In this document: in pieces, positions 42,586 to 60,049 of the stretch
Layout of the letters: each line of letters begins with the position of its first letter
Numbering within the stretch: position 1 is the stretch's first letter
Source of the DNA: Clostridia bacterium
GTDB lineage: Bacteria > Bacillota > Clostridia > Christensenellales > CAG-138
NCBI GenBank assembly: GCA_017395105.1
Contig: JAFPWD010000001.1
Span: 1,344 to 65,343, forward strand
Direction of reading: 5' to 3'
DNA: 64,000 nt
Translations under genes and position numbers: made by a program
Notes under the pieces: generated by a model
What the model was told of the DNA's origin: nothing
Databases searched by the model: none
The model's input: only the letters and a program-made list of their open reading frames with translations

Positions 42586-42601
42586 TAAAGGAGCAGCGAA
42601 T

Positions 42602-44287
42602 ATGTTAAGAAAAAAGAGCATAATAATCGCAATAGTGCTTGCCGTGCTTGCGGTCGGAGCAGCTTATGCATACGTTGAATACGTTTACCCCAGGGTGGTG
42701 GAGCCCGCGGAAACCTATGCGCAGGCAAGAAACCTGTATAACAGCGGAAACTACGTTCAGGCCGCGCTGAAGCTTGAATCCATACCGAAGTATTCCGACT
42801 CCGTTAGAGTCTCAAAGCAGGCATGGAAGCTTGCGGGCGATAATGCCTATAATGAGGGTAATTTCGATCTTGCTTCGGCCTGCTATATGAAGGCGGGCTC
42901 AAACGCGGAGGACATTGCAAGGATGGATGACTGCTATCTCCGCCTTGCGGAAAATGCGTTTGAAAACGATATGATCTCCCGCGGTGAGGCGTATCTGGAG
43001 TGCGTTTCGGATGCGGACGGAAACTCGGATAGGATAGACAATATCAGAATTAACGCGGCAAGCGCGGCGCTCGCTGCGGGAGTGAACGCATCGAGTATAT
43101 CGCGAGCGGTGGAGAGGCTCGGCTTATGCAGCGAAAAGGCGATGCCGAGGGCTATCGAGCTTCTTATGAACAAGGGCAAGGCTGTGCTTGCGGTATTCGA
43201 TCTTGACTCTGCAAACTCGCTCTTCAATGCGGCAAGGCGATTTACCGCAGAGGATAAGCTGGCGGCGTTGGATGAAAGCATCGCTTCGGAATGGACGCAG
43301 ACCGGCATTGCCGCGCTGGAAAGAGGAATGACCTCGGTTGCCGAAAAATGCTTCAATATGAGCGGATACGTGCCCGAGCTGCAGAATGCCGAAGCGCAGT
43401 ACGCGAGGGCGGAGCAGCTCTATGCAAACGGCGAGGTCTTCGCTGCCTACAGTATTTTCAGAAAGCTCGGAGATTATAAAAACAGCAGGGATATGACGGC
43501 TGCTATAGTTGAGCTGATCAGCAGGATGCCGAATGCCGGCTCCGAAAACGCTTATGCGATGCTCGATCTGGACGGCACGGTCAAGCTTTATGGCGATGCA
43601 TGGGTGACGGGTGAACCGAATTGGACGGATATTAAGCAGATCTCCGTTGGCAAAACCCCGTTTATTCTTGCCGTGGGCAAAGACGGCAGAGTGCACAGCG
43701 CAGGCAGAAATACCGATGACTGCACGAACGTATCCTCCTGGGATCAGATAGTAATGGTTTCATGCGGCGCTGCCCATTCAATGGGTCTGAGAGCCGACGG
43801 CACCGTGGTGCTCACGGGCTCGATCGCCGATGGCGCAAACAATACGGCATCCTGGCGTGAGATCGTTTATATCGCATCAGGCATGGATTCCTGCTATGGC
43901 GTTATGCAAAACGGCAGAGCGGTCGCCTCGGGAGCGAACGGCTCCGGCCAATGCGACGTATCCTCCTGGGAAAACATTAAGCAGATCTCCGCAGGCAACA
44001 GGCATGCGGTCGGCCTCAGGGAGGATGGAACGGTCGCAGCCTGCGGCGACAATACCTATGGCCAGTGCGAAGTTTCCTCCTGGACCGACGTGGTCTTTGT
44101 TTCGGCGGGCGCTTACCACACCGTTGCCCTCAAGGCGGACGGAACGCTGCTCGCTTGCGGAAAGAACGACGACGGCGAATGCGGCGTAAGCAGGTTCAGC
44201 GGCGCGGCGGCGGTCTCCGCAGGAACGGGTTATACCATCATCGTTTTTGAGGACGGCACAAACAGGCTCATCGGCAGAACGAACTGA
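42602..44287 (+). CDS. Membrane-anchored TPR-like plus RCC1-repeat protein
   Basis: N-terminal TM; helical repeats with LGDYKNS; repeats SAG..H.VGLR.DGTV.A.G.N..GQC.VSSW. Confidence 0.85.
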   Translation: MLRKKSIIIAIVLAVLAVGAAYAYVEYVYPRVVEPAETYAQARNLYNSGNYVQAALKLESIPKYSDSVRVSKQAWKLAGDNAYNEGNFDLASACYMKAGSNAEDIARMDDCYLRLAENAFENDMISRGEAYLECVSDADGNSDRIDNIRINAASAALAAGVNASSISRAVERLGLCSEKAMPRAIELLMNKGKAVLAVFDLDSANSLFNAARRFTAEDKLAALDESIASEWTQTGIAALERGMTSVAEKCFNMSGYVPELQNAEAQYARAEQLYANGEVFAAYSIFRKLGDYKNSRDMTAAIVELISRMPNAGSENAYAMLDLDGTVKLYGDAWVTGEPNWTDIKQISVGKTPFILAVGKDGRVHSAGRNTDDCTNVSSWDQIVMVSCGAAHSMGLRADGTVVLTGSIADGANNTASWREIVYIASGMDSCYGVMQNGRAVASGANGSGQCDVSSWENIKQISAGNRHAVGLREDGTVAACGDNTYGQCEVSSWTDVVFVSAGAYHTVALKADGTLLACGKNDDGECGVSRFSGAAAVSAGTGYTIIVFEDGTNRLIGRTN

Positions 44288-45956: not shown

Positions 45957-46001
45957 CATTAATTATTAAAAAGGGAATCCCTCACCGCAACGGAGCAAAA
46001 G

Positions 46002-46784
46002 ATGGATAACAGACCTATCGGGATCTTCGATTCGGGCATGGGCGGAGTGAGCCTCCTTCGGGATGCGCACCTGCTTCTGCCGAAGGAAAACTTCATATTT
46101 TATGGCGACAATAAAAACGCCCCCTACGGCGACAGAACCGAGGAGGAGATCCTTTCGCTCACCTCGGCAGCGGCGGATTATCTGGTTGAGCACGGCGTAA
46201 AGGCGCTGGTGCTCGCCTGCAATACAGCAACGAGCGCATCCATAAACATATTAAGAAGAAAGCTCGCCGTGCCGGTGGTCAGCATCGAGCCCGCGATCAA
46301 GCCCGCCTGCGAAAGAGCGGGGGAGGGCAAGGTGTTTATGCTCGCAACGGCGGCGACCACGCGGCTTGCCCGCTACCGCGCACTTTTGGAGCGCATGCCC
46401 GATCCTTCCCGCGTTATCAATATCGGACTCAGCGGCATGGTTGCAAGGGTGGAGCGCGGCGAAACCGAGATTGGCGCGTATGACGACATCCTCAACGAGT
46501 ACCTTGAGCCCTATTTCGGCGAAACGGCGGATGCGATCGTGCTCGGCTGCACTCATTACGTTTTCGCGGGCGAAGCGATCCGCGAGTATTTCCTGCGCCA
46601 TTTCAAGGGCGAGTGCAGGCTGTTTGACGGCAACCGCGCCACGGCGTGCCAGCTTGGAAGGGTGCTCGAGCGAAACGGGCTTTTGAATCCCGGAGGCTGC
46701 GGAAAAGTCGTATTCACGACCAGCGGAGAGCCGGAAAAGCTCGCGCCCATATTCGATAGGTTTTTAAACACCCCTTTGGATTGA
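46002..46784 (+). CDS. murI: Glutamate racemase
   Basis: IFDSGMGG, APYG, LACNTA, VLGCTHY. Confidence 0.96.
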   Translation: MDNRPIGIFDSGMGGVSLLRDAHLLLPKENFIFYGDNKNAPYGDRTEEEILSLTSAAADYLVEHGVKALVLACNTATSASINILRRKLAVPVVSIEPAIKPACERAGEGKVFMLATAATTRLARYRALLERMPDPSRVINIGLSGMVARVERGETEIGAYDDILNEYLEPYFGETADAIVLGCTHYVFAGEAIREYFLRHFKGECRLFDGNRATACQLGRVLERNGLLNPGGCGKVVFTTSGEPEKLAPIFDRFLNTPLD

Positions 46785-46936
46785 GGGGCAATTCGGCGCA
46801 ATAAGCGGGCAAAAAAGGCGCCGGAATAAATAATATATAACGAATAGGCAATACATAGTTTAAAAAACACTTTAAATCAAAGCAAATTAGACGAGCGACT
46901 AACGGCCCTTGGGTTTCAAAAATTGCATAAACCCCC

Positions 46937-47099
46937 TTACATTTTCGGCAACATTCTGATATAATAGTGATACGCATTATGGAATGGCTTTTCCCGTGCG
47001 CAGAATTCATCGAAGCTATAACTGCGGCCCACGGTTCCGGGCTTCCGGGCTTAGAGCCGGACGCGGTTTTAGACTTAAAAAAATCTTTGGAAGGAGATT
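46937..47099 (+). promoter_or_regulatory. sigmaA promoter and structured leader shared with the scaffoldin gene
   Basis: TTACAT-17-TATAAT (TG extended); CGAAGCTA, hairpin, TTAGACTT(A7)TCTTTGGAAGGAGATT. Confidence 0.7.
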
Positions 47100-47104
47100 C
47101 ACAC

Positions 47105-50083
47105 ATGAAGAAAATCTTCGCATTCGTGATCGCAGTCGCAATGGTTCTTTCCCTTGTAACCGTTCCCGCGATCGCAGAGACCCGCAAAGTCACCCCGTCC
47201 ACCGCGACGATGACTTTGCCCCGTGAATCCACCCGCGATGCAGCCAACCTCGATGAGGCGCTGAACGTTCCGGGCGGCAACCTCGTTTTCACCTCCGAGG
47301 GACAGTATCCTTGGGTAGTTGAAGGCGATGCGGCTAAGAGCAGCAACGCGGGCGTTGCAAGCTCCACCTCCGCCGTCAGCACCACCGCGACTGCGGCTGC
47401 AGGCGATATCGTGCAGTTCGATTTCAAGGCATGGGGCGAAGGCTCCAGCATGTACTGGGACAAGTGCGAATTCGCCATCGACGGCAGCGTTGTTTTCAGC
47501 AAGGGTGCTTATGCAAACGTAGACTGGGAAGCTTTCTCAACCGAGCTCACCCCCGGTTCCCACACCCTGACCTGGTCCTACACCAAGGACAGCAGCGTCA
47601 ACCCCAACGGTGACTACTTCGCGGTTGATAACGTTTACGTTGGCCAGCCCGTCATGGCTGAGTCCATCAACGTTGATCCCGTAAGCGTTCCCGAAGGCCG
47701 CAGGGCTACCGTTTCCTACGAGGTACTTCCCGCTGCTGCTTTCGACAAGAGCGTTACCTTCTCCATCGCCGATACTTCCATCGCGACCGTTGATGCAAAC
47801 GGCGTTGTGACCGGCGTTGCCGAAGGCACCACCACCATCACCGTTACCAGCGCCGCGGTTCCCACCGTTTCCGGCACTGCTGCCGTCACCGTAACCGAGG
47901 CTCTTCCCGCCGTCAACCTCGAGGGCTATGCGACCTTTGATCTCGCTTCCTCCGGCCTTGAGGGCAACTGGATCGGCTTCGCCGATTACGATCCCGCAAC
48001 CGTAAGCGTTCTCGCTCCCCTCGGCCAGCAGGCTTGGGCAGGCGCATTCGCGGGCGGCAGTGTATACGGCTACATCTACAATGAAGGCGGCGGCAATAAT
48101 TTCTACATTATGGATCCCGAGACCTACACCGTCAGCTTCCCCGGCACCAATGCGGACAGCGTGGGCGGTGTCATCGGCATGGCGTACAACCATGCGAACC
48201 AGACCATGTACGGTCTGAGCACCAACCGCGATATCGTTACCGTTGATCTGGCAACCGGCGTCCCCACCGTTGTGGCACCCATAGACAATGAAAACGTCCT
48301 CCTTCTTCTTGCCATCGATCAGGAGGGCAATGCCTATACCATGACCACCACGGGCAATCTCATGGCGCTCGATCTCACCAACGGTTCCACCGCTGTGATC
48401 GGCTCCACCGGCCTCTCTGCGAACTACGTTCAGTCCATGACCTATGACTTTGACACCGACATGATCTACTGGGCACAGATCTTTGATGACAGCAGCCATG
48501 GCCTCTATGCCGTCAATCCCCAGACCGCGGCTGTTGAGAGCCTCGGCGTTATCGGTTCCGGCGGCGTTGAAGTCGTTTCCATGTACATCAAGAACGATCT
48601 CCCCATCGACGATATCGAGATGCCCGACGTGACCGTTACCTTCGTTGACGGTATCGACAATGCGGTTCTCGGCACTCAGACCGTTGAGGCGGGCACCGTT
48701 CTCGATGAGAGCACCTTCCCCACCGCTCCCGAGCATGAAGGCTTTATCTTCACCGGTTGGGATTACGATGGCGCGGCGGTTTACACCGACACCACCATCA
48801 GGGCTATGTATCAGGATCCCAACGCCACCATTTGGGACTTCGAGACCGATCCCGCCGCTCAGGGCTTCCAGTTCATCGATCAGGATGGCGACGGCAACAA
48901 CTGGACTTGGGTATATCCCGCTCCCGACGGCATGGACTATCATGAGGGCGATGGCCTCATGGTTTCCGAGTCCTTCATCAACAATGTTGGCCCTCTTACC
49001 CCCGATAACTGGCTGGTAACTCCCGCGTTCTCCGGCATCCAGCTCAGCTTCTGGGCACAGGGTCAGGATCCCTCCTACGCTGCTGAGTACATCGGCGTAT
49101 TCGTATCCACCGACGGCGGCAGCACCTGGTCCGATGAGATCTTCAGCTGCACCCTCACCGGCACCGACACTCAGTACGTTGTAAACCTTGCCGACTATGC
49201 CGGTCAGACCATCAAGGTTGCTATCCGTCACTACAATGTAACCGATATGTTCCGTGCAAACGTTGACTACATCGAGGTAAGCGGCGGCGGCTCCGAGCCT
49301 TCCGATCCCACCCCCACCCCCGTTGATCCCACCGAGCCCCCTGTCACTCCCGAACCTGTCACTCCCGAACCTGTCACTCCCGAACCCGTTGATCCCGGCG
49401 AAGGCATCATCTGGGACTTCGAGCAGGATCCCGAGACCCAGGGCTTCGTATTCCTCGATCAGGACGGCGACGGCAACAACTGGACCTGGTGCTATGGCGC
49501 TGAGTTCAGCGATCACACCCACCACGAGGGCAGCGGCTTTATGGCTTCCGAGTCCTACATCAACTATGTTGGCGCTCTTACCCCCGATAACTGGATGGTA
49601 ACCCCCGAGTTCACCGGCACTCAGCTCACCTTCTGGGGCGCAGGTCAGGATCCCTCCTACGCTGCTGAGTACCTTGGCGTTTACGTATCCACCGATGGCG
49701 GCAGCACATGGTCCGATGAGATCTTCGGCTGCACCCTCACCGGCACCGACACCCAGTACACCGTTGATCTGTCCGCTTACGCAGGCCAGACCATCAAGGC
49801 GGCTATCCGTCACTACAATGTAACCGATATGTTCCGCGCTAACGTGGACTACATCGAGGTTCTTGGCGGCGGCTCCGAGCCCATCACCGGCGTTATCGGC
49901 GACACCACTCTCGACGGTGAAGTTACCATCGCTGATGCTATCCTTGCTCTGCGCCACATCATGGGTCTTGAAACCCTGACCGGTGATGCTCTTGCACAGG
50001 CTGATGCGAACCAGGACGGCAACGTTACCATCGAGGATTGTATCCTCATCCTCCGTGCGGCCCTCGGCCTCATCGAGCTGTAA
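47105..50083 (+). CDS. Secreted dockerin protein: shared N-module, Big_2 Ig, propeller-like region, InlB B-repeat, 2 cleaved-adhesin (choice-of-anchor J) domains, dockerin
   Basis: Signal peptide; IATVDANGVVTGVAEGTTTIT; QSMTYD..IYWAQ; EGFIFTGW; DQDGDGNNW/LTPDNW/AIRHYN x2; C-terminal GDTTLDGEVTIADA...DANQDGNVTIED. Confidence 0.88.
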   Translation: MKKIFAFVIAVAMVLSLVTVPAIAETRKVTPSTATMTLPRESTRDAANLDEALNVPGGNLVFTSEGQYPWVVEGDAAKSSNAGVASSTSAVSTTATAAAGDIVQFDFKAWGEGSSMYWDKCEFAIDGSVVFSKGAYANVDWEAFSTELTPGSHTLTWSYTKDSSVNPNGDYFAVDNVYVGQPVMAESINVDPVSVPEGRRATVSYEVLPAAAFDKSVTFSIADTSIATVDANGVVTGVAEGTTTITVTSAAVPTVSGTAAVTVTEALPAVNLEGYATFDLASSGLEGNWIGFADYDPATVSVLAPLGQQAWAGAFAGGSVYGYIYNEGGGNNFYIMDPETYTVSFPGTNADSVGGVIGMAYNHANQTMYGLSTNRDIVTVDLATGVPTVVAPIDNENVLLLLAIDQEGNAYTMTTTGNLMALDLTNGSTAVIGSTGLSANYVQSMTYDFDTDMIYWAQIFDDSSHGLYAVNPQTAAVESLGVIGSGGVEVVSMYIKNDLPIDDIEMPDVTVTFVDGIDNAVLGTQTVEAGTVLDESTFPTAPEHEGFIFTGWDYDGAAVYTDTTIRAMYQDPNATIWDFETDPAAQGFQFIDQDGDGNNWTWVYPAPDGMDYHEGDGLMVSESFINNVGPLTPDNWLVTPAFSGIQLSFWAQGQDPSYAAEYIGVFVSTDGGSTWSDEIFSCTLTGTDTQYVVNLADYAGQTIKVAIRHYNVTDMFRANVDYIEVSGGGSEPSDPTPTPVDPTEPPVTPEPVTPEPVTPEPVDPGEGIIWDFEQDPETQGFVFLDQDGDGNNWTWCYGAEFSDHTHHEGSGFMASESYINYVGALTPDNWMVTPEFTGTQLTFWGAGQDPSYAAEYLGVYVSTDGGSTWSDEIFGCTLTGTDTQYTVDLSAYAGQTIKAAIRHYNVTDMFRANVDYIEVLGGGSEPITGVIGDTTLDGEVTIADAILALRHIMGLETLTGDALAQADANQDGNVTIEDCILILRAALGLIEL

Positions 50084-50116
50084 GATACGATCAGTTCAAT
50101 AGCTGAATAGTTTATC

Positions 50117-50148
50117 GGCGCCCTTTCCCTTCGGGGGAAGGGCGTTTT
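50117..50148 (+). terminator. Intrinsic terminator
   Basis: CGCCCTTTCCC-TTCG-GGGAAGGGCG followed by TTTT. Confidence 0.8.
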
Positions 50149-50362
50149 ATACTATTGGTGAATAGTGAATAGTTAAAGAACCTGCGCGGGAATCTCTGCT
50201 TGGGCTTTTTAAAAGCGAATCGGTCTCCCAAACCGTCTTTTTAGGGGAGAATATAGCAAATAATCGGAATAATTCTTAAATCCGTATTGCAAATTCCGCC
50301 GCCGTTTAGTATACTGATAGAAGCGTATATGAAAAACGCAAATAAACAGCAAGGAGAACCGT

Positions 50363-52042
50363 ATGAAAAGAATCATCGCAACAGTCCTTTCCCTCGTGAT
50401 GCTGCTTTCGCTTGCAAACGTACCCGCGCTTGCCGAGCGTGAAGCCGCGCGCGATGCAGCCGATTTGAACGAGGCGCTGAACGTGCCGGGCGGCACACTC
50501 AGCTTCACAACAGGCGGAGCTTACCCCTGGGTCGTTGCCGGCGATGCCGCGAAGAGCACCAATTCCGGCGTTTCAAGCTCCACTTCCTCCGTTTCAACGA
50601 CCGTTACCGCCAACGCGGGCCAGCTTTTGAGCTTCGATTTCCTTTCCTGCGGCGAAGGCTCGGATGCAAACGCATGGGACGGGCTTCACCTCTACGTTGA
50701 CGGCGAGCTTGCAGCGAAATGGGGCGAGCATTCGGAGTGGGCGCATTTTGAATATGAGCTTACTGCCGGCTCGCACGAGGTGACCTTCACCTTCAAAAAG
50801 GACGGCAGCCTCAATATCGGCGAGGACTGCGCCTACGTTGACAACGTGCAGGTGGTCAGCCCCGTTATGGCGGAGCAGATCGTTGCCGCCGATATCAGCG
50901 TCAGCGTGGGCCGCCGCACCGAGATCGAATACGAGGTTCTGCCCGAGAACGCATTCAATAAGAACGTGACCTTTATGAGCGCGAATCCCGCCGTTGCTGC
51001 CGTCACGGCCGATGGCGTGATCAAGGGCATGGCCGAGGGCATGACCACCGTGACCATTACCAGCGCTGCGGTGCCGAGCGTTTCAACGGATATAACCGTT
51101 ACCGTGACCGAAGGTTTGCCGATCGCAGAGTTTTTCGGCTTTGCGACCTATGATTTCGGCGCGGATCAGAGCAATGATATGAAGTGGGTCAGCTTCACGG
51201 ATGCGGAGCCGGATATCGTGACCGCGTACAACACGATGCCCCATAACGTTTCCGCCGCCGCATACTTTGACGGCAGCGTTTACGGCTATTACTACGACGG
51301 CACGAACGAGGAGCCGATCAGGAACTATTTCGTGATGGATCATGCGACCCGTCAGCTTGAGGAGTACAGCCTCATGCACGATGCCGGCGTTTTTGCGATG
51401 GCATACGACTATACTCGCGGCAATATGTACGCCGTGTGCGGTGAAATGCAGACCCGAAATCTCGGCATTGTCGATCTTGAAACGGGCGAGATCGAGTACG
51501 TCGGCGAGCTGACCGCGCCGATGATGATGACCTTCGCTATCGATGCAAACGGCGTGGGCTACGGGCTTACGATGGACGTGAACAGCGCGAAGCTCTACCG
51601 CGTGGATCTCGAAACCGCCGAATGCACTCTTGTTGGCGAAACCGGTGTTGCGCTTGCTTATCTTCAGTCCATGACCTACGATCACCATACCGGCAAGCTC
51701 TACTGGGCGCAGGTTATCAACACCACGACCGATCACGGTCTGTACTGCATCGATCCCGAAACCGCGCAGGTCGAGTTCATCGGCGTTATCGGCGACGGCA
51801 CCGAGATCACAGGCATTTATACCGTTGCGCAGCCCGATGAAGCCGGAATTCTCGGCGATGCCGATCTGAACGGCAGTGTCACCGTTGCGGATGCGGTGCT
51901 TGCGCTTCGCCATACGACCGGACTCTACGAGCTGAGCGGACGCGCATTCATTCAGGCGGACGTGAACCTCGACGGCAGCGTCACCGTTGCGGATGCGGTT
52001 GCAATCCTTCGCTATGCGCTCGGACTTATAAATAATTTCTGA
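50363..52042 (+). CDS. Secreted dockerin protein: shared N-module, Big_2, propeller-like region, dockerin
   Basis: Own promoter TTGCAA-17-TATACT (50287-50315); GDADLNGSVTVADAV...DVNLDGSVTVADAV. Confidence 0.88.
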   Translation: MKRIIATVLSLVMLLSLANVPALAEREAARDAADLNEALNVPGGTLSFTTGGAYPWVVAGDAAKSTNSGVSSSTSSVSTTVTANAGQLLSFDFLSCGEGSDANAWDGLHLYVDGELAAKWGEHSEWAHFEYELTAGSHEVTFTFKKDGSLNIGEDCAYVDNVQVVSPVMAEQIVAADISVSVGRRTEIEYEVLPENAFNKNVTFMSANPAVAAVTADGVIKGMAEGMTTVTITSAAVPSVSTDITVTVTEGLPIAEFFGFATYDFGADQSNDMKWVSFTDAEPDIVTAYNTMPHNVSAAAYFDGSVYGYYYDGTNEEPIRNYFVMDHATRQLEEYSLMHDAGVFAMAYDYTRGNMYAVCGEMQTRNLGIVDLETGEIEYVGELTAPMMMTFAIDANGVGYGLTMDVNSAKLYRVDLETAECTLVGETGVALAYLQSMTYDHHTGKLYWAQVINTTTDHGLYCIDPETAQVEFIGVIGDGTEITGIYTVAQPDEAGILGDADLNGSVTVADAVLALRHTTGLYELSGRAFIQADVNLDGSVTVADAVAILRYALGLINNF

Positions 52043-52047
52043 TGCTT

Positions 52048-52088
52048 TGCTTTTCCCGCCGCAGTTTTTTTGCGGCGGGAAAAGCTTT
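52048..52088 (+). terminator. Intrinsic terminator-like hairpin
   Basis: GCTTTTCCCGCCGCA...TGCGGCGGGAAAAGC. Confidence 0.7.
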
Positions 52089-52186
52089 ATCAGCCCAAAC
52101 GCAGCGCGGCAGCATTAAGATCTGCGTAATAAAAGCGCGGCGTTCGGGCTAAAACTGCAAAATGCATAAAACACAATGGAGGAACT

Positions 52187-54544
52187 ATGAAAAGACTATT
52201 CGCATTTATTACCGCTGCGCTCCTCGCGCTTGTTTCGCTTCCGTTTGCTTCAAGCGTTACAAGGGCGGAAGCAAACGCCGCTGACGCCGCTTCGCTCAAT
52301 GAGGCGCTGAACGCGGCGGGTGTAAGCCTCAATTATTCGACGGATTCGCAGTATCCCTGGGTGGTTGACGGCGACGCGGCGAAGAGCAGCAACGAGGGAG
52401 TTGCCAACTCCACCTCTTCGGTTTGGACGAATTTCACCTCGGTTCAGGGAGACGTGCTCCAGTTCGACTGGATCAGCATGGGCGAAGGTCCGGATCTTCA
52501 GGATTGGGACGGTCTGCGCGTCTATTTAGACGGCACGAAGATCCTGCACAAGGGCGCGGGTCATCCCGATTGGGAACGCTTCCAAACCACGCTCGAGCCG
52601 GGCGCACATGAGCTCACATTCACTTATAAGAAGGATGGCGGCATCGACCGCGAGGGCGACTTCGCGAAGATAGACAATGTGTACGTCGGAAGGATCGTTA
52701 CGCCCTCATCAATAGCCGTGCAGCAGGTGAACGTTCACGCGGGGCGCACCGAAAGCGTTGTATATACCGTTCTGCCCGATGAAACCTTTGATAAAAGCGT
52801 CACTTTCTCCGTTGCGGACACCTCGATCGCAACGGTGGACGTAAACGGCGTTGTGAACGGCGTAAGCGCGGGCACGACCACGGTCACAGTCACAAGCGTG
52901 GCCGATCCCACGGTTTCGGGAACCGCCGCAGTGCATGTGCTCGATCCGCTAAACAATGCGTATCTTTACGGCTTCTGCCTTTTCGACGTTGGCATGAACG
53001 GCATGGAGGGGCATCTCGTTGGCTTCGACGAGGCTTCGCCCGAAAACATTGAGGACGTGTTCGATCTTGGCGAAACCACCTATTCCTCCGCATACGCGGG
53101 CGGCAAGGTGTACGGCTATCTCTACAACCACAACGCCACCGACACGCGCTTCTTCACTTTGGATACGCAGACATATGAAATCAGCTATCCCGGCGCGAGC
53201 TACGCAACGGGCATGATCGCGATGGCGTTCAACCATGCGGATCAGACGATGTACGGCATAAACGCCGCAACGCCCGCCAAGCTCGTTTCGATAAACACCT
53301 TCAGCGGCATCGTGACCGAGATCGCGCCCATAACCGGCATGAACGGCACGCCGATGACGCTTGCGATCGACCTTGACGGCAACGCATATTTCCTTGAATC
53401 GGTCAACAACGAGGCCGTGCTCTGTCGGCTCGACCTTGCAACGGGCGAAGCCACGGAGGTCGGAGGCACCGGCGTTTCGATGAAATACATTCAGTCCATG
53501 GTCTATGATTTCAATACCGACAAGATCTACTGGGCGCAGAATTATGACACGGAGAAAACCGGACTGTACGTCATCGACCCGCAGACGGCGCAGACCGAAC
53601 CGCGCGGCAAGATCGGCCCGGCAGGCATGGAGCTAACAGGTCTTTACATCAAAAACAATATCCCCGTGGATATTCAGAACCCGAACGTAACCGTCACCTT
53701 CCTCGATAATATCACAAATCTGGTGGTGGAAACGCGCTCGGTGCCGTCGGGCAGCGTGCTCGATCCGGAAACCTTCCCGGTGCCGCCTGCGCACCCCGGC
53801 TTCACCTTCATAGGCTGGAACTACATTGCCGGAACGCCGATCCACAGGGATACGACGATCACCACAAAGTATTACGATCCGCAGGCGACTACGGCGGTGG
53901 TGGTGCTGAACGTTCCAAACGATATCTGGGGCGACGGCTCGGGCTACCAGATGCTCATCGATGCGGATGCGACCGCCTACGGCAACGAGATACCGCTGAC
54001 TAACGGCGCGATTTCTGCGCCGGGAAACGTTCCCGGCTGGATTTACGCTGCGTTCGAGCACAGGATCCCGGAAAACGCCGACGGAGTGCTGACGACGCAG
54101 AATATAGTTGTTCAAAACAGCATTTCCATAGAGATTCCCGCGGGAACCTATGACTGGGTGATAGTGAACCCGGTTCCGAACGACCGCGTCTATATCGCCT
54201 CCGACAACGGCAATGCGGACGGACGCGCGAACGATTTCGTTTTTGAAGCGGGAAAAACCTATACCTTCACGGTTTCCGAATATCATACCTCCGATAAGGT
54301 CGATCTTACGATCACCCTCGGCGGCACGACCCCGCAGCAGCCCATCGGCGAGCCGGGAGACATCGATCTGAACGGCAGCATTACCATCGCGGATGCGGTG
54401 CTCGCGCTCCGCCATGCGCTCGGCCTCATCACGCTCGAAGGTCAGGCGCTCGCAAACGGCGACGTGGACGGCAGCGGCGGCGTTACGGTTGCGGACGCGG
54501 TGCAGATCCTTCGCAGGTCGATGGGACTGATGGATGGCTTTTGA
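52187..54544 (+). CDS. Secreted dockerin protein: shared N-module, Big_2, propeller-like region, InlB B-repeat, gingipain-type DUF2436 domain, dockerin
   Basis: DIWGDGSGYQMLIDADA...IPENAD...TTQNIVV...IPAGTYD...DFVFEAGKTYTF; GDIDLNGSITIADAV...DVDGSGGVTVADAV. Confidence 0.88.
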   Translation: MKRLFAFITAALLALVSLPFASSVTRAEANAADAASLNEALNAAGVSLNYSTDSQYPWVVDGDAAKSSNEGVANSTSSVWTNFTSVQGDVLQFDWISMGEGPDLQDWDGLRVYLDGTKILHKGAGHPDWERFQTTLEPGAHELTFTYKKDGGIDREGDFAKIDNVYVGRIVTPSSIAVQQVNVHAGRTESVVYTVLPDETFDKSVTFSVADTSIATVDVNGVVNGVSAGTTTVTVTSVADPTVSGTAAVHVLDPLNNAYLYGFCLFDVGMNGMEGHLVGFDEASPENIEDVFDLGETTYSSAYAGGKVYGYLYNHNATDTRFFTLDTQTYEISYPGASYATGMIAMAFNHADQTMYGINAATPAKLVSINTFSGIVTEIAPITGMNGTPMTLAIDLDGNAYFLESVNNEAVLCRLDLATGEATEVGGTGVSMKYIQSMVYDFNTDKIYWAQNYDTEKTGLYVIDPQTAQTEPRGKIGPAGMELTGLYIKNNIPVDIQNPNVTVTFLDNITNLVVETRSVPSGSVLDPETFPVPPAHPGFTFIGWNYIAGTPIHRDTTITTKYYDPQATTAVVVLNVPNDIWGDGSGYQMLIDADATAYGNEIPLTNGAISAPGNVPGWIYAAFEHRIPENADGVLTTQNIVVQNSISIEIPAGTYDWVIVNPVPNDRVYIASDNGNADGRANDFVFEAGKTYTFTVSEYHTSDKVDLTITLGGTTPQQPIGEPGDIDLNGSITIADAVLALRHALGLITLEGQALANGDVDGSGGVTVADAVQILRRSMGLMDGF

Positions 54545-54821
54545 TGTCGCTATAGCCGAAACGAGGCGGAGCGGCGCGCCGAGCGCCGCATATCTCAATT
54601 GAAGAAACACATACCGCCTGAAGAAAAACAGCCTGCCGCCGATGCTCGGAAGAGATCGGCGGCTTTTTGCTTTATCCGTATGGAAAAAGGGGCAAATCGA
54701 GCCGAAAACGGGCGGAAATGGCAGCGGCGGAGCCCTGCGTGAAAAATTCTTTAATATAATAACAATTGTGCATACTCGGCGAATTGGTAAAAATTTTTTA
54801 TCCCAAAAGCCGAAAAAACGA

Positions 54822-55003
54822 TTGCAAAATTGACGGCTTTCTGATATACTGCTATCGTATGGATATGTGCGTTCCGAGCAATAACGAAGAAAGCGCGTTC
54901 CGTGCAAAATCAATCCGAAGCTACTGCCGGCTTTGCCGGCTTCATCCGAGGGTGAAGCTTGTAAAGCCGAGCATTAGACTTAAAAAATCTTTGGAAGGAG
55001 ATT
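54822..55003 (+). promoter_or_regulatory. sigmaA promoter and structured leader of the scaffoldin gene
   Basis: TTGCAA-17-TATACT (TG extended); CGAAGCTA, long hairpin, TTAGACTT(A6)TCTTTGGAAGGAGATT. Confidence 0.7.
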
Positions 55004-55008
55004 TACGC

Positions 55009-58000
55009 ATGAAGAAATTTTTTGCAATGGTAGTTGCGGTAGCGATGGTTCTTTCCCTCGCTCTTCCCGCATTCGCCATGACGCAAACCTTGCCCCACGG
55101 CGATGAGGGCAAGCCCGGTGCTACCCCTGCCGACGCGGTCGTCTTCTCTGCTGAAGCGCCCGAAAATGTTGAAGCAGGCGAAACCTTTGACGCTGTAGTC
55201 AGTGTCAACGGCAGCTACGAGGCCCACGGCCTGAATCTGCAGTTCAACTACGACCCCGAGGTGTTTGAAGTAGTCAGCACCACCAACGGTCCCGTTATGG
55301 CTCAGATCCAGAGCCTCGGCGGCTTTGGTCTTCTCGACTACACCACCGTTCCCGGCTCCGTGCGCTACGGCGTTATGATGCCCACGAACGGCTTCACCGA
55401 GCAGGGTGTCATCTTCACCGTCACCTTCCGCGTTCTTGCAGGCGCGGCCGACGGCAACTATGACCTTGAGGTTCTTGTTCTCGAGTTCTTCAACATGCCC
55501 ATCGGCGGCAGCAACACTCCGATCGAGCATACCGATAACGGCGTTACCGTTACCGTAGGCAATCCCGCTGAGGAAACCCCCACTCCGGCTCCCGCGACCG
55601 CGACTCCGGTTCCCGCGACTCCTACCCCGGCTCCCGCAACCGCGACTCCGGCTCCCACCGCGCCTCCGGCTCCCGGCGTTATTTGGGACTTTGAACAGGA
55701 TCCCATCGCGCAGGGCTTCACCTTCCGCGATCAGGACGGCGATGGCAACAACTGGTACTGGCACATGAATACCGGTATGGGCAACTACAGCGCTCACAGC
55801 GGCGATGGTGTTGCTGCATCCGATTCCTATGACAACGACAGCAGCATGGCCCTCACCCCCAACAACTGGATGCTCACTCCCGCGTTCACCGGCAGCTCCA
55901 TCACCTTCTGGATGACTGCGCAGGATCCCAGCTACTCCAATGACTTCGTTGGCGTATATGTATCCACCGACGGCGGCAACACCTGGAGCGACGAGCTCTT
56001 CGGTCAGATGACTCCCACCGACTATCAGCAGTTCACCGTTGATCTTTCCGCTTATGCCGGTCAGACCATCAACGTTGCGTTCCGTCATTACAACTGCTCC
56101 GACATGTTCATCGCCGTTATCGATGACATCGAGGTAGCGGGCGGCAGTTCCGATCCCACCGATCCCACTCCCGTTCCCCCGACCAATCCTCCCACCAATC
56201 CTCCCGTAGATCCCACCAACCCGCCGGCAGTCGGCATCATCTGGGACTTCGAGCAGGATCCCGTTGCTCAGGGCTTCGCATTCCTCGATCAGGACGGCGA
56301 TGGCAACAACTGGGAATGGATGTATGGCGCTGAGTACAGTGATCACACCCACCACGAGGGTATCGGCTTCATGGCTTCCGAGTCCTACATCAACAATGTA
56401 GGCGCTCTGACTCCCGATAACTGGATGGTAACCCCAGAGTTCTCCGGCACCCAGCTCACCTTCTGGGCAGCAGGTCAGGATCCCTCCTGGGCAGCTGAGT
56501 ACCTTGGCGTATTCGTATCCGTCGACGGCGGCAGCACCTGGTCCAACGAGATCTTCGGCTGCACCCTCACCGGCACCGACACTCAGTACACTGTGAATCT
56601 CGCAGCTTATGCGAACGTACGCACCCCCATCAAGGTTGCTATCCGTCATTACAACGTAACCGACATGTTCCGTGCGAACGTTGACTACATCGAGGTAAAC
56701 GGCGGCGGCAGCTCCGAGCCCACCCCGGCTCCTCAGACTCCCACTCCCGCACCCGCAACTCCCACCCCCGCTCCCGTAACTCCCGTTCCCGGTGAGCCCG
56801 GCGAGGAAGTTCTCCTTGCAGGTTACTACTTCGAGAGCGGCAACGAGGGCTGGATCTTCAACGGTGTTGACAACACCAACTGGGTACATTCCAGCAACAA
56901 CCCCGGCGGCTACGACTACGCTTCGTTCGCACACGAGGGCAGCGGCTTCATCATGTCCTACTCCTTCGTTGACTATGTTGGCGCTTATCAGGCCGACAAC
57001 TGGGCGATCTCTCCCGCAGTTACCCTTCCCGCAGGCTCCGCGCGCGTAAGCTTCTATGCGACCAATGCGAACGTTGAATACCCCGAGGCATTCGATGTTT
57101 ACATCGGCACCTCCACCGACACCTCCGCAATGACTCTGCTCCAGGCAAACATCACCCCGAACAGCGGTTATGAAGATCCCTGGACTCATTACGAGATCGA
57201 CCTTTCCGATTATGTCGGTCAGACCATCTACCTTGCCTTCTACGATCATTGCTATGATATGTACGAGATCTGGGTAGACCAGGTTGAGTTCTTCGGCGCA
57301 GGCAGCGGCGATCAGCCCACCCCCGCACCCGCAACTCCCGTACCCGCAACTCCCACTCCCGAGCCCATCACCCCCGCTCCCGGTCAGGTAGTGTTCACCG
57401 TGGAAGCTCCCGAGTACGTTGAGGCAGGCGAGGAATTCGACGTTATCGTCCGCGTTGAGGGCGAGTACGAGGCTCATGGTCTCAACCTCCAGCTCAACTA
57501 CGACAATGCTAACTTCACCGTTCTTGGCACCGCCAACGGCGAGGTCATGGATCAGATGACCGCCCTCAACGGTTTCGCCCTTCTTGACTACACCACGATC
57601 CCCGGCTCCATCCGCCTCGGCGTTATGATGCCCACCGATCCCTTCACCGCGAACGGCATCATCTTCACCGCAACCTTCAAGGCGAGTGAGTCCATCGCAG
57701 ACGGTCAGTATGCCTTCGTTCCCGCTGTTGAGGAGTTCATCAACTTCCCGCTCGGCGGCGAGAATACCCCGATCGACAACATCGCTTACCCCGCTTACGT
57801 AACCGTTGGCGAGGTTGTAGAGCCCACCGAGCCTCCGGTAGAGCCCACCCAAGAACCCGTTGAGCCCACCGATGAGCCCACCAACATGGCGAGCTTCACC
57901 GTGGATCACGTAGAAGCGGTTCCCGGCGCACTGGTTCCCGTCACCGTACACGTTGAGGGCGACTACCTTGCCCACGGCCTGACCTTCTGGCTCGACTACG

Positions 58001-58539
58001 ATGCCGAGAAGCTCACCGTTGAGAGTGTTGAGAACGGCGACCTCATGAACGAGGTTCTTGACCTTGAAGGCTTCAACGTTCTCGATTATGAGACCATCGA
58101 AGGCTCCATCCGCTTCGCGGCCGTTGCTCCCATCCCCGAGCAGCCCTTCTCCACCGAAGGCACCGTATTCACCGTTTACTTCCGCGTTTCCGAGGAAGCG
58201 CAGGTTGGCGATGTTTATGAGCTCGTTGCCAACGTGACCGAGCTGGTCTACATGCCCGACTCCGAAGAGATCGCCGTTGATTGGGAATCCGAGGACGGCA
58301 GCATCACCATCATTGACGGCGAGCCCGTAGAGCCCACCGATGAGCCCGTAGAGCCCACCGACGAGCCCGTAGAGCCCACCGATGTTCCCGTAGAGCCCAC
58401 CGAGGTTCCCGGCGAGCCCACTCCCGAGCCCACCACTCCGCCCGCACCTCCCACCGGTACCATCGCTATGGTCGGTGCAGGTATCGCGGCTGTAGTTGCA
58501 GGCGCAGGCATCGTGCTCTTCAGGAAGAAGGAAGACTAA
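55009..58539 (+). CDS. Cell-wall-anchored scaffoldin-like protein: cohesin, 3 cleaved-adhesin domains, 2 cohesins, sortase-type tail
   Basis: Cohesin-like repeats (AHGL...YD...LDY.T..GS.R) at ~55138-55560, ~57388-57810, ~57889-58320; adhesin domains ~55678-57297; Pro/Thr linkers; APPTG, hydrophobic segment, RKK. Confidence 0.86.
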   Translation: MKKFFAMVVAVAMVLSLALPAFAMTQTLPHGDEGKPGATPADAVVFSAEAPENVEAGETFDAVVSVNGSYEAHGLNLQFNYDPEVFEVVSTTNGPVMAQIQSLGGFGLLDYTTVPGSVRYGVMMPTNGFTEQGVIFTVTFRVLAGAADGNYDLEVLVLEFFNMPIGGSNTPIEHTDNGVTVTVGNPAEETPTPAPATATPVPATPTPAPATATPAPTAPPAPGVIWDFEQDPIAQGFTFRDQDGDGNNWYWHMNTGMGNYSAHSGDGVAASDSYDNDSSMALTPNNWMLTPAFTGSSITFWMTAQDPSYSNDFVGVYVSTDGGNTWSDELFGQMTPTDYQQFTVDLSAYAGQTINVAFRHYNCSDMFIAVIDDIEVAGGSSDPTDPTPVPPTNPPTNPPVDPTNPPAVGIIWDFEQDPVAQGFAFLDQDGDGNNWEWMYGAEYSDHTHHEGIGFMASESYINNVGALTPDNWMVTPEFSGTQLTFWAAGQDPSWAAEYLGVFVSVDGGSTWSNEIFGCTLTGTDTQYTVNLAAYANVRTPIKVAIRHYNVTDMFRANVDYIEVNGGGSSEPTPAPQTPTPAPATPTPAPVTPVPGEPGEEVLLAGYYFESGNEGWIFNGVDNTNWVHSSNNPGGYDYASFAHEGSGFIMSYSFVDYVGAYQADNWAISPAVTLPAGSARVSFYATNANVEYPEAFDVYIGTSTDTSAMTLLQANITPNSGYEDPWTHYEIDLSDYVGQTIYLAFYDHCYDMYEIWVDQVEFFGAGSGDQPTPAPATPVPATPTPEPITPAPGQVVFTVEAPEYVEAGEEFDVIVRVEGEYEAHGLNLQLNYDNANFTVLGTANGEVMDQMTALNGFALLDYTTIPGSIRLGVMMPTDPFTANGIIFTATFKASESIADGQYAFVPAVEEFINFPLGGENTPIDNIAYPAYVTVGEVVEPTEPPVEPTQEPVEPTDEPTNMASFTVDHVEAVPGALVPVTVHVEGDYLAHGLTFWLDYDAEKLTVESVENGDLMNEVLDLEGFNVLDYETIEGSIRFAAVAPIPEQPFSTEGTVFTVYFRVSEEAQVGDVYELVANVTELVYMPDSEEIAVDWESEDGSITIIDGEPVEPTDEPVEPTDEPVEPTDVPVEPTEVPGEPTPEPTTPPAPPTGTIAMVGAGIAAVVAGAGIVLFRKKED
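58321..58401 (+). repeat. 21-bp coding tandem repeat (EPVEPTD linker)
   Basis: GAGCCCGTAGAGCCCACCGA(T/C), about 4 copies. Confidence 0.85.
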
Positions 58540-58570
58540 TCAAACCCGCTCTTAACTGAGCGAAGCAGTT

Positions 58571-58598
58571 GAGGAGGATCCCAACCGGGATCCTCCTC
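58571..58598 (+). terminator. Hairpin after the scaffoldin gene
   Basis: GAGGAGGATCCC-AACC-GGGATCCTCCTC. Confidence 0.7.
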
Positions 58599-58652
58599 AT
58601 TATGTTGCATAATATATTTGAAATTAGCGAATCGGCATAGTATAATATAGTA

Positions 58653-59366
58653 GTGATTACGAACATATATTTAGAGGAAGTTATAAGCTCGAGAACTGAG
58701 GCTGAGCGCGGAGAAGTGGATCTGCTCGATCCGCATTCTTTTCTGCCCATAATACTTGCTTCGGCCGCCGACCTCGCATCATTGATGTTAAAAGAGAGCG
58801 GAGATGGCGCGGCGATATCCGTGCATTCTACTCTCGCCGCCGTGAAGCTGCGTTTTCCCGCAGGCTTTTCCTGCACAAAAGAGCAATGCGGCGCTCAGCT
58901 TGAGCTTCTTAACGATAGTGCCGCAGGCCGCTGCGGCAATAGCGTTTTCGCTGCTCTGCATTTGGTAAAGCAAACGCTTATTCTGGAAGTTGACGATGGA
59001 TTCATGCTTGCTTTCGCCGAGAAGGCTGCGCGATGCTACAGGCATTCTCTTGTCGAATCGGTGGCTGTGCCAAAGGGCGGCGCCGCTGCCGACAGCGAGG
59101 CTTCAGCCTATGCACGTTCGCGCCTGTATGCCAATTCGAAAACGGCAGCATGCGCACATAAGCCCGAGGCAAGGAACGCTCTGTTTCGTTGCCTGTGCCT
59201 GTTTTCGGCGGAGATGGTCGCTCTTACAGATGCGCATTCCTCTGCTGTTCGCGCCGCGCTCGATGCCTGCAGCTCGGGCGCACTTGGAAGTGTTGATTCC
59301 GCGGCAATGGCTGCCGCGCTTCTATATGCGGAGACTCCGCAAAAGATCAAAGAAATAAAGGAGTAA
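58653..59366 (+). CDS. Hypothetical protein, probably leaderless
   Basis: TTGAAA-17-TATAAT (58618-58646) places the TSS at the GTG; ends 5 nt before the next gene. Confidence 0.6.
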   Translation: MITNIYLEEVISSRTEAERGEVDLLDPHSFLPIILASAADLASLMLKESGDGAAISVHSTLAAVKLRFPAGFSCTKEQCGAQLELLNDSAAGRCGNSVFAALHLVKQTLILEVDDGFMLAFAEKAARCYRHSLVESVAVPKGGAAADSEASAYARSRLYANSKTAACAHKPEARNALFRCLCLFSAEMVALTDAHSSAVRAALDACSSGALGSVDSAAMAAALLYAETPQKIKEIKE

Positions 59367-59371
59367 AATTT

Positions 59372-60049
59372 ATGCTGATAAGATGGTATGGACATTCATG
59401 TTTTCTGTTTACCGATTCCAACGGCACCACTGTGCTGACTGACCCATACGATTCCTACATTGGCTATGAGCTGCCCCAGATCTATGCCAATGCGGTCACC
59501 ATCAGCCACGATCACAACGACCACAACAATATCAGCGTTGTGAAAAGCAATACCACCATTATGCGCACCCCAGGCGAATATGAGATAGGCGGAGTGCGTA
59601 TCATCGGCGTGGAGACCGATCACGACCGTTGCGGCGGAACGCTTCGCGGAAAGAACATCATGTTTGTGTACGAGATGGACGGCATGCGCATCCTGCATTG
59701 CGGCGATCTCGGCGCGATCCCGAGCGAGGAAGTTATTAAAAAGGTCGGCCATATAGACGTTATGCTCGTTCCAATCGGTGCGATCTACACGATCGACGAT
59801 TTTGAGGCGCGCGAGCTTGCTAATATCTTCCGGCCGAAGATCGTTATTCCCATGCACTATAAAACGCCTAAGCTCAAAATCGAGCTCTGCACCCTTGCGC
59901 CTTTCGTGGATGCCGCCAAGGATTGCCGCATCCACTACCTCAATCAGTGCGATGCTTCCGTGCAGCTCACCACCCTTGGCGAGGATCGCGTTATTATCCT
60001 GCGCCCGTTCGATGCGGAGCGTGACGAAGCTAAAGCACCTGTTGCTTAA
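59372..60049 (+). CDS. MBL-fold metallo-hydrolase
   Basis: WYGHSCF, TDPY, SHDHNDH, HCGDLG, IPMHY. Confidence 0.92.
   Translation: MLIRWYGHSCFLFTDSNGTTVLTDPYDSYIGYELPQIYANAVTISHDHNDHNNISVVKSNTTIMRTPGEYEIGGVRIIGVETDHDRCGGTLRGKNIMFVYEMDGMRILHCGDLGAIPSEEVIKKVGHIDVMLVPIGAIYTIDDFEARELANIFRPKIVIPMHYKTPKLKIELCTLAPFVDAAKDCRIHYLNQCDASVQLTTLGEDRVIILRPFDAERDEAKAPVA

Follow-up and report, generated by a model that had tools for sequence, protein, structure and literature searches.

Cellulosome-type cohesins and dockerins joined to gingipain-type adhesin modules, with no recognised glycoside hydrolase, in a ruminant-gut lineage of Christensenellales

Introduction

What are cohesins and dockerins used for outside fibre digestion? 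The question is still poorly answered, and it is raised by a locus in the metagenome-assembled genome (MAG) of a Clostridia bacterium of the order Christensenellales. We analyzed a 64,000-nucleotide stretch of this genome, called the window here (assembly GCA_017395105.1, contig JAFPWD010000001.1, positions 1,344 to 65,343 of the forward strand). In its listing of open reading frames, four + strand genes, A, B, C and D, span window positions 47105-58539. A, B and C encode secreted proteins that end in dockerins, and D encodes a scaffoldin with three cohesins. In a cellulosome, such parts act as plug and socket for sugar-cutting enzymes. No enzyme of that kind was found here, and the locus points to a use beyond fibre digestion.

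An earlier interpretation made from the letters alone, the sequence-only reading, described the four proteins as a Gram-positive adhesin/protease complex that rebuilds a gingipain-like assembly on cellulosome hardware. Our analysis partly supports it. We propose that A-D are one arm of a genus-wide, sortase-anchored cohesin-dockerin surface system free of glycoside hydrolases (GHs), which would act as a Ca-dependent, multivalent adhesin platform. We put the probability of this proposal at about 60%.

Results

D is a scaffoldin with gingipain-type adhesin domains

D is composed of a signal peptide, a first cohesin (Coh1), three Cleaved_Adhesin domains (CA1, CA2 and CA3), two more cohesins (Coh2 and Coh3) and a sorting tail, in this order. 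Pfam matches Cohesin in three stretches (5.9e-26) and Cleaved_Adhesin (PF07675) in four (4.7e-47), and NCBIfam matches choice_anch_J (NF038128) in three (1.2e-54). All three cohesins exceed the cut-off of the Cohesin family (PF00963; 24.1 bits). Coh1 and Coh2 are 55% identical. Coh3 shares just 27-40% identity with every other cohesin in the genome, and matches the solved cohesin 4uyp_A at 2.8e-6. A 1176-amino acid (aa) protein identical to D is present in the protein collection. The three cohesins, the Pro/Thr linkers and the APPTG-hydrophobic-RKK tail that the sequence-only reading had seen in this protein were all recovered.

Among solved structures, the adhesin domains match 3m1h (1.8e-16), 4itc and 3km5, all K domains of the gingipain Kgp. 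Motifs common to the domains of D and 3m1h are DGDGNNW, PDNW/Y..VTPE, LTFW and AFRH, and the motifs quoted in the sequence-only reading align to 3m1h as well. The family matches and these solved structures bear out the earlier count of three Cleaved_Adhesin domains in D and two in A. CA3 is the most divergent copy, as had been noted: its identity to the copies in A is 34% (E 2.4e-11), compared to 51-67% for CA1 and CA2. Pfam detects no carbohydrate-binding module (CBM) family on D. CipA-type scaffoldins carry a CBM at the position that the adhesin domains occupy here.

Pro/Thr-rich linkers separate the domains, six in D and one in A. All seven contain no Lys or Arg, which makes gingipain-style cleavage between the domains unlikely. 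Linker length appears to vary between strains. Contigs from RNA libraries carry in-frame insertions or deletions of 3, 9 and 15 bases at window position 57326 and at 57814-57872, within the Pro/Thr linkers of D.

The C-terminus of D has the features of a sortase substrate: a PxTG-type motif, a hydrophobic stretch and a basic tail, in a genome that contains a sortase gene. This gene (in the region G000:C45:73900-77400, L110), found in the sortase search that the sequence-only reading had proposed, is the only one in the genome and lies between two frames, one with an LPSTG-type and one with an SPPTG-type tail. Counting D, PxTG-type sorting tails occur in seven frames of the genome. The PPxTG tails resemble (S/P)PXTG, the motif of Clostridioides difficile SrtB.

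A, B and C are paralogues with variable C-terminal halves

A, B and C share 40-44% identity over their first 460-660 residues; identity to A is 44% over 657 aa for C and 44% over 462 aa for B. The common front half is formed by an N-terminal domain (NTD) of about 140 aa without a family match, a Big_2 domain and a propeller-like region of about 240 aa. Like D, all three have a signal peptide, with a MKK or MKR start, a hydrophobic run and Ala-x-Ala. In A, the NTD, Big_2 and a DUF4394-like propeller region are followed by a short repeat, two Cleaved_Adhesin domains and the dockerin. Big_2 (5.4e-13), Cleaved_Adhesin (two stretches, 7.6e-35) and Dockerin_1 are matched in A by Pfam, and choice_anch_J (two stretches, 2.2e-36) by NCBIfam. 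Identity between the adhesin domains of A and the first two of D, CA1 and CA2, is 62-67%. B contains only the signal peptide, NTD (residues ~29-168), Big_2 (173-236), propeller region (~250-490) and dockerin. C has an A/B-like front half including Big_2, then DUF2436 (residues 566-707; 6.1e-44) and the dockerin. Its DUF2436 matches the solved chain 9isp_A (PrtH) at 8.9e-31.

The sequence-only reading had called the region after Big_2 propeller-like. DUF4394 reaches 19-20 bits there, under the Pfam cut-off of 29.6, and a feature match in the ESM-Atlas points to DUF4394/DUF6923 clusters with a score of 0.94. For the NTD, Atlas leads to CBM_4_9, CBM6/35, galactose-binding-like, Cleaved_Adhesin, MAM and DUF642 clusters score 0.80-0.87, below 0.9. 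We treat 'propeller' and 'beta-sandwich' as weakly supported leads for these regions. The NTD was also considered as a divergent Cleaved_Adhesin domain; this was dropped, as hhalign gave a probability of 2% against the Cleaved_Adhesin alignment.

An alignment of 34 homologues shows just four near-invariant residues in the propeller region, G259, Y307, G397 and Y400; no acidic, His, Ser or Cys residue is near-invariant. This pattern looks structural rather than catalytic. At E <= 1e-30, 452 cluster representatives match B, a count to which Big_2 arrays contribute.

No protease family, no Por_Secre_tail (the C-terminal domain of the type IX secretion system, T9SS) and, at E <= 0.01, no GH family was detected in A-D by Pfam. 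NCBIfam gave two GH matches far below threshold, 15.4 bits against 175 and 18.9 against 1700, the second of which covers only the dockerin. The earlier statement that the four proteins contain no recognisable carbohydrate-active enzyme (CAZyme) therefore stands at this threshold.

The dockerins of A, B and C

A, B and C each end in a dockerin with a duplicated Ca-binding loop. Both loops of B follow D-x-D/N-x-N/D-G...D, and the first loop of A has Thr at position 3. In a six-frame search of the genome all three exceed the cut-off of Dockerin_1 (PF00404; 22.9 bits), in line with the earlier description of A, B and C as secreted proteins that end in dockerins. In the whole-protein Pfam scan A scores 26.5 bits, and B (19.6) and C (19.8) fall below the cut-off. 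For B and C, solved dockerins are among the matches too (4uyq_B, 2ccl_B; both for C).

The three dockerins form no group of their own. That of B is closest to the dockerin of a subtilase encoded elsewhere in the genome (L073; 61% identity, compared to 55% to A and 54% to C). A complex prediction for Coh1 of D with the dockerin of B, run without controls, scored 0.20 and 0.22, where the mark is 0.32; it counts neither way.

D belongs to a genome-wide system without recognised glycoside hydrolases

The source MAG is 1.90 Mb in size and 68% complete. The six-frame search yielded 14 cohesin matches and 50 dockerin matches, and 48 of the latter exceed the cut-off. The cohesins are distributed over three proteins: three in D, ten in a 1860-aa protein on contig C43 and one in a 343-aa protein on contig C10. 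A profile of all 14 matched 17 PDB sequences, every one a cohesin, including the NagJ cohesin chains 2jh2, 2ozn and 2o4e. The C43 scaffoldin is among the seven frames with PxTG-type tails, and its tail (TPPTG, a hydrophobic stretch and RRKED) is nearly the same as that of D. The single-cohesin protein ends in a plain membrane tail.

Coh1 of D is 39-48% identical to cohesins 2-10 of the C43 scaffoldin, and Coh1 and Coh2 together span 39-51%. D is thus a second scaffoldin of the same system and not a closed unit; the sequence-only reading, which took the four genes as a closed system, was too narrow here. In the C43 scaffoldin, the first cohesin is directly followed by a copy of the NTD seen in A, B and C (residues 181-319; 49% identity, E 1e-31). 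With three Cleaved_Adhesin domains in D and an NTD in the C43 protein, both scaffoldins have a putative binding module in the place of the CBM. The earlier remark that the adhesin domains of D stand where a CBM would be expected is apt.

The 50 dockerin frames were scanned by Pfam, together and then one by one, at E <= 1e-3. None carries a GH catalytic family (0/50), so the prospect that the dockerin proteins of this genome are mostly GHs, by which the sequence-only reading could have been overturned, was not borne out. The recognised companions of the dockerins are leucine-rich repeats (LRRs; seven frames, plus two weak), AhpC-TSA/Redoxin/thioredoxin domains (seven), Cleaved_Adhesin (six, including A) and S8 subtilases (five). 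Big_2 is the only other match in three frames. One frame each has DUF2436 (C), Big_2 (B), the propeller region only, CHAP, Cthe_2159 (1.1e-62), DUF285, Glug, and CarboxypepD_reg/PEGA with an N-terminal dockerin. Twelve contain a dockerin and nothing else. All carbohydrate-flavoured matches in the census are non-catalytic or sub-threshold: Cthe_2159, CBM_6, CBM60, a ChitinaseA_N Ig-like domain, an RGI_lyase beta-sheet domain and an EndoS LRR.

Several dockerin genes stand out by arrangement or content. The seven thioredoxin-fold dockerin proteins (L062, L090, L071, L055, L069, L079 and L082) are secreted and about 250 aa long, with one of 326 aa. Three of their genes (L062, L090 and L071) lie in a row at G000:C36:29300-31669. 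The display of thiol-disulfide oxidoreductases on a cohesin scaffold is unusual. Six dockerin genes (L045, L056, L046, L093, L061 and L084) form another row at G000:C16:26084-39850, where an LRR is found in one and between one and three Cleaved_Adhesin domains in each of the other five; L056 also has a copy of the NTD. In L067 (1056 aa, G000:C1:11791-14961) the dockerin is N-terminal (residues 46-91) and precedes CarboxypepD_reg and PEGA domains. In L052 (G000:C45:11923-13794), a CHAP domain of the peptidoglycan hydrolase type is fused to a dockerin.

Cohesins, module fusions and gene order in related genomes

Cohesins were found in all 16 other genomes of the genus, in 22 of 24 genomes of the family and in only two of 16 sampled from other families of the order. 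The A/B/C module is present in 16 of the 17 genus genomes. Among the matches listed, at least four genomes have the full module in one open frame with cohesins (G001 C80, G013 C13, G014 C59 and G015 C56), and at least five more have it within about 4 kb of a cohesin frame (G000, G003, G010, G011 and G012). The module is thus fused to or near cohesins in at least nine of the 17. G010 has five copies in a row near its cohesin frame. Frames that join cohesins to the NTD alone number at least 11, in 10 genomes. In G003, an extra 588-aa frame with a propeller match lies between the C-like gene and the cohesin frame.

Four metagenome proteins of 1298-1821 aa combine Big_2, DUF4394, DUF2436, Cleaved_Adhesin and Cohesin in a single chain. 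In a sheep MAG the order racemase-A-B-C-scaffoldin is kept, with a scaffoldin 67% identical to D. The fusions and the conserved gene order are our best evidence that A, B and C work with D-type scaffoldins. The scaffoldin ortholog of the sheep MAG is found in two frames of 578 and 1040 aa (L097 8972-10708 and 11160-14282). This may be a frameshift, an assembly error at a repeat or a real split.

GH9 was matched in none of the 17 genus genomes, and GH5 in two, one of which has 6% contamination. GH48 and Peptidase_C25 (PF01364) were matched in none of the 17; the control of these searches also matched nowhere, and both results are uninformative.

At E <= 1e-10, D has 482 homologues. Cohesin and Cleaved_Adhesin occur together in 107 of the best 120, most of which also have DUF2436, and PPxTG with a hydrophobic stretch and a basic tail occurs in 109 of the best 120. 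Their source labels are generic, such as 'DUF2436 domain-containing protein [Christensenellales bacterium]' and 'choice-of-anchor J domain-containing protein [Clostridia bacterium]'. Records of related genomes belong to MAGs from rumen and sheep, filed as Clostridia, Clostridiales or Christensenella sp. Homologues in other MAGs are 67-96% identical, and an index of public runs contains near-identical DNA in gut metagenomes of six further studies.

A and D are covered at >= 95% identity by contigs of four RNA libraries, each from a different study (sheep gut, bovine and gut metagenomes); in two of the four, contigs also cover B and C. This fits transcription. The contigs give little or no cover at 46000-46901 and have adapter-like loose ends near 46998, 54979 and 50110; we draw no inference on transcript limits or relative expression from them.

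The locus and its neighborhood

The features of the locus are collected in Table 1. The genes upstream, citrate lyase genes and a racemase, are unrelated to A-D, as are those downstream of D, which encode a metallo-beta-lactamase-fold protein and a helix-turn-helix regulator. Neither promoter-like sites (10, compared to 6.3 +/- 2.6 in shuffled sequences) nor terminator-like hairpins (9, compared to 11 +/- 3.1) are in excess in the region, and an Rfam scan of 46000-59500 matched no family.

Table 1. Features of the A-D locus in window coordinates
Feature	Position	Strand	Details
Promoter-like site upstream of A	46936..46965	+	10/12 matches with TG; weak feature
Gene A	47105..50083	+	992 aa; ATG at 47105, within a frame opening at 46967
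Cleaved_Adhesin domains of A (two)	48839..49858	+	Residues 579-725 and 771-918; Pro/Thr linker 728-767
Dockerin of A	49898..50047	+	31.1 bits (six-frame genome search; C9:51241-51390)
Terminator-like hairpin after A (second)	50122-50142
Gene B	50363..52042	+	559 aa; minimal form of the A/B/C unit
Dockerin of B	51851..52015	+	23.9 bits (six-frame genome search)
Gene C	52187..54544	+	785 aa; front half as in A and B
Dockerin of C	54353..54508	+	25.7 bits (six-frame genome search)
Gene D	55009..58539	+	1176-aa scaffoldin; 58539 is the final base of the stop codon
Cohesin 1 of D	55114..55557	+	Residues ~36-183; 44.1 bits
Cleaved_Adhesin domains of D (three)	55684..57303	+	CA1 226-378, CA2 411-566, CA3 601-765
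Cohesin 2 of D	57394..57810	+	Residues 796-934; 31.7 bits
Cohesin 3 of D	57880..58320	+	Residues 958-1104; 39 bits; divergent
Sorting signal of D	58444..58536	+	APPTG, 21 hydrophobic residues, RKKED
Terminator-like hairpin after D	58570..58599	+	13 pairs

Two further dockerin genes lie at the ends of the window. An S8 subtilase with a C-terminal dockerin (L086, 872 aa) has its N-terminal 502 aa at window 1-1507 on the - strand, with the rest extending to G000:C9:232, and a dockerin protein of 563 aa (L072) begins at about 63800. Together with A, B and C, the contig has five dockerin genes. An RCC1-repeat protein (573 aa, 1.8e-31) is encoded on the + strand at 42566-44287, between the citrate lyase ligase gene and a citX/citG fusion gene.

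Discussion

A proposed surface adhesin platform

We propose the following arrangement for the A-D system. D would be exported by its signal peptide and joined by sortase to the cell wall at its PPxTG tail, as suggested by its sorting signal, the presence of a sortase gene and a tail conserved among homologues. It would then display three type-I-like cohesins, with three beta-jelly-roll modules of the gingipain K type between cohesins 1 and 2. A, B and C are secreted paralogues composed solely of modules that resemble binding modules: the NTD, Big_2 and the propeller, then two Cleaved_Adhesin domains in A or DUF2436 in C. Judging from family membership, their Ca-loop dockerins would plug into the cohesins of D and also into those of the C43 scaffoldin. 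The modules of A, B and C and the three K-type domains of D would together present a multivalent adhesin at the cell surface. The same platform could hold the dockerin-bearing subtilases, thioredoxin-like proteins and LRR proteins. The shared cohesin classes, and a dockerin in B that is nearest to that of a subtilase, indicate that subtilases and thioredoxin-like proteins may share these scaffolds.

Several points weigh against this proposal. We infer the cohesin-dockerin pairing, the sortase anchoring and the adhesion function of A-D from their sequences. Counts across the genus come from genomes related to one another and are therefore not independent, and in the comparison of modules with cohesins 30 cohesin and 17 module matches lie outside the lists that were compared. 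RNA libraries can contain DNA. With the genome 68% complete, a third of its dockerin proteins may have been missed. The census was made by Pfam and not dbCAN, and the 12 dockerin proteins without a family, the propeller and the NTD could hide enzymes. Cthe_2159 on one dockerin protein and sub-threshold CBM_6 and CBM60 on another are a hint of carbohydrate contact.

Alternative explanations

Some of these points would also suit an unusual cellulosome variant: a glycan-directed complex in which the adhesin, NTD and DUF2436 modules serve as CBMs and the partners are unrecognised enzymes. The candidates for such enzymes are the propeller, the 12 family-less dockerin proteins and genes in the missing third of the genome. 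The ruminant gut habitat and the incomplete genome favor this explanation, as does the match of a dockerin protein to the carbohydrate-binding Cthe_2159 family (1.1e-62), with CBM_6 and CBM60 below threshold on another. The Atlas leads from the NTD to CBM_4_9, CBM6/35 and galactose-binding-like clusters agree with it, as leads only. However, the enzymes that can be recognised on dockerin frames are subtilases, thioredoxin-like proteins and a CHAP domain, and a GH catalytic family is on none of the 50. The scarcity of GH9 and GH5 in the genus and a propeller region without a conserved acidic residue also argue against a glycan target. We regard this explanation as unlikely. Strictly defined, the system is not a cellulosome, as far as Pfam matches in a 68% complete genome show: no dockerin frame of the 50 has a GH catalytic family, no CBM family is on D and GH9 was matched in none of the 17 genomes.

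Another explanation accepts the parts and disputes their pairing. A, B and C may dock on the C43 scaffoldin or on the single-cohesin membrane protein while D takes other clients, and the clustering of the four genes would then reflect co-regulation or duplication. By sequence, Coh1 and Coh2 of D do share a class with cohesins 2-10 of C43. The A, B and C dockerins are ungrouped, that of B being closest to the L073 subtilase, and mere gene neighbours seldom pass complex prediction. The conserved gene order, and a module fused or adjacent to cohesin frames in at least nine of 17 genomes, are less easily explained in this way. Shared cohesin classes permit both pairings, which means that this explanation overlaps with the adhesin platform rather than excluding it. 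As a full account of the locus it seems improbable. That the locus is an inert or decaying cellulosome remnant that is not made is very improbable. It has no direct support, the D ortholog split in two frames in one MAG (L097) being the nearest to it. The four frames are intact with signal peptides, homologues in other MAGs keep 67-96% identity, the linker differences are in-frame and contigs of four RNA libraries cover A and D.

A bolder interpretation, and what remains of the gingipain comparison

The adhesin platform can be extended into a 'cellulosome for proteins or cells'. Such a complex would join gingipain-type modules, subtilases, thiol-disulfide oxidoreductases, LRR proteins and CHAP, and would capture, unfold and digest proteinaceous targets such as feed protein or the surfaces of rumen microbes. 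In effect, a Gram-positive lineage would have converged, by non-covalent assembly, on the proteinase-adhesin complex of the gingipains. We consider this possible but doubtful.

For the locus itself, a gingipain-like assembly overreaches. In the adhesin/protease complex of the sequence-only reading, the cellulosome hardware and the adhesin modules hold. The protease half fails for A-D, which contain no protease; its only link is the five dockerin-bearing S8 subtilases elsewhere in the genome. Compared to RgpA, Kgp, HagA and PrtH of Porphyromonas gingivalis, the system here has the same Cleaved_Adhesin and DUF2436 families and similar tandem arrays on the cell surface. It differs in that no C25 protease was detected (with the failed control of that genome search), no T9SS domain is present and the linkers lack Lys and Arg. 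Here, in a cell of Gram-positive type, the docking of dockerins on cohesins together with sortase would bring about the assembly.

Relation to known systems

Clostridium perfringens offers a precedent for non-cellulosomal joining of secreted proteins by cohesins and dockerins. It uses single cohesin-dockerin pairs between secreted glycosidases and is not known to have a multi-cohesin, wall-anchored scaffoldin.

The system of Ruminococcus flavefaciens is anchored by LPXTG and has LRR and peptidase clients. Our system resembles it in having scaffoldins with several cohesins, numerous dockerin proteins and sortase-based anchoring in place of S-layer homology domains; the primary scaffoldin there also has no CBM3 (PMC11557425). 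The dockerin proteins there are mostly CAZymes, compared to 0/50 GHs here (PMC11557425). The scaffoldins here also differ in bearing Cleaved_Adhesin or NTD modules and in having PPxTG, not LPXTG, in the tail. The Ruminococcus bromii amylosome likewise extends cohesin-dockerin assembly beyond cellulose in gut Clostridia; its clients are starch-degrading GH13 enzymes, and it is still a CAZyme complex (PMC6118326).

A further known class is that of the 'scaffoldin-containing', presumably non-cellulolytic microbes of a 2024 genome survey (PMC11557425). As the passages searched describe them, these have tens of dockerin proteins, one or no dockerin-bearing lignocellulose GH, and dockerins on unusual domains. 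The systems listed there are smaller, and in those passages no Cleaved_Adhesin scaffoldin is described and the terms Christensenell, adhesin and protease are unmentioned (PMC11557425). Single-cell genomes of cockroach-gut Christensenellales are mentioned with dockerins and one cohesin, in a passage that takes them as cellulosome parts (PMC10266427). According to a review, proteases, serpins and other non-CAZy proteins are minor cellulosome clients (PMC12484212). The paper on the solved DUF2436 structure, in the passages searched, expects a binding module and names no partner (PMC11448926).

A search of open-access papers and preprints, supplements excluded, found none that joins cohesins or dockerins with Cleaved_Adhesin or DUF2436 or describes this system, and none on DUF4394. 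The sequence-only reading knew of no described system with this architecture. This agrees with the literature search, but 107 of the best 120 homologues of D have the architecture, and NCBIfam already catalogues the adhesin domain with several anchors ('choice-of-anchor J'). The architecture is therefore common in public MAG proteins and apparently undescribed in the literature.

Implications

This lineage is widespread in ruminant guts. It has two multi-cohesin scaffoldins, at least 50 dockerin proteins and clonable parts, and no glycosidase among them. With defined, clonable parts free of glycosidases, the re-use of cohesins and dockerins for adhesion or protein foraging is directly testable. 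The same applies to the ligands of Cleaved_Adhesin and DUF2436 outside Porphyromonas, and to PPxTG as a sortase substrate in this order. Dockerin counts in rumen MAGs should not be taken as a measure of fibre-degrading potential.

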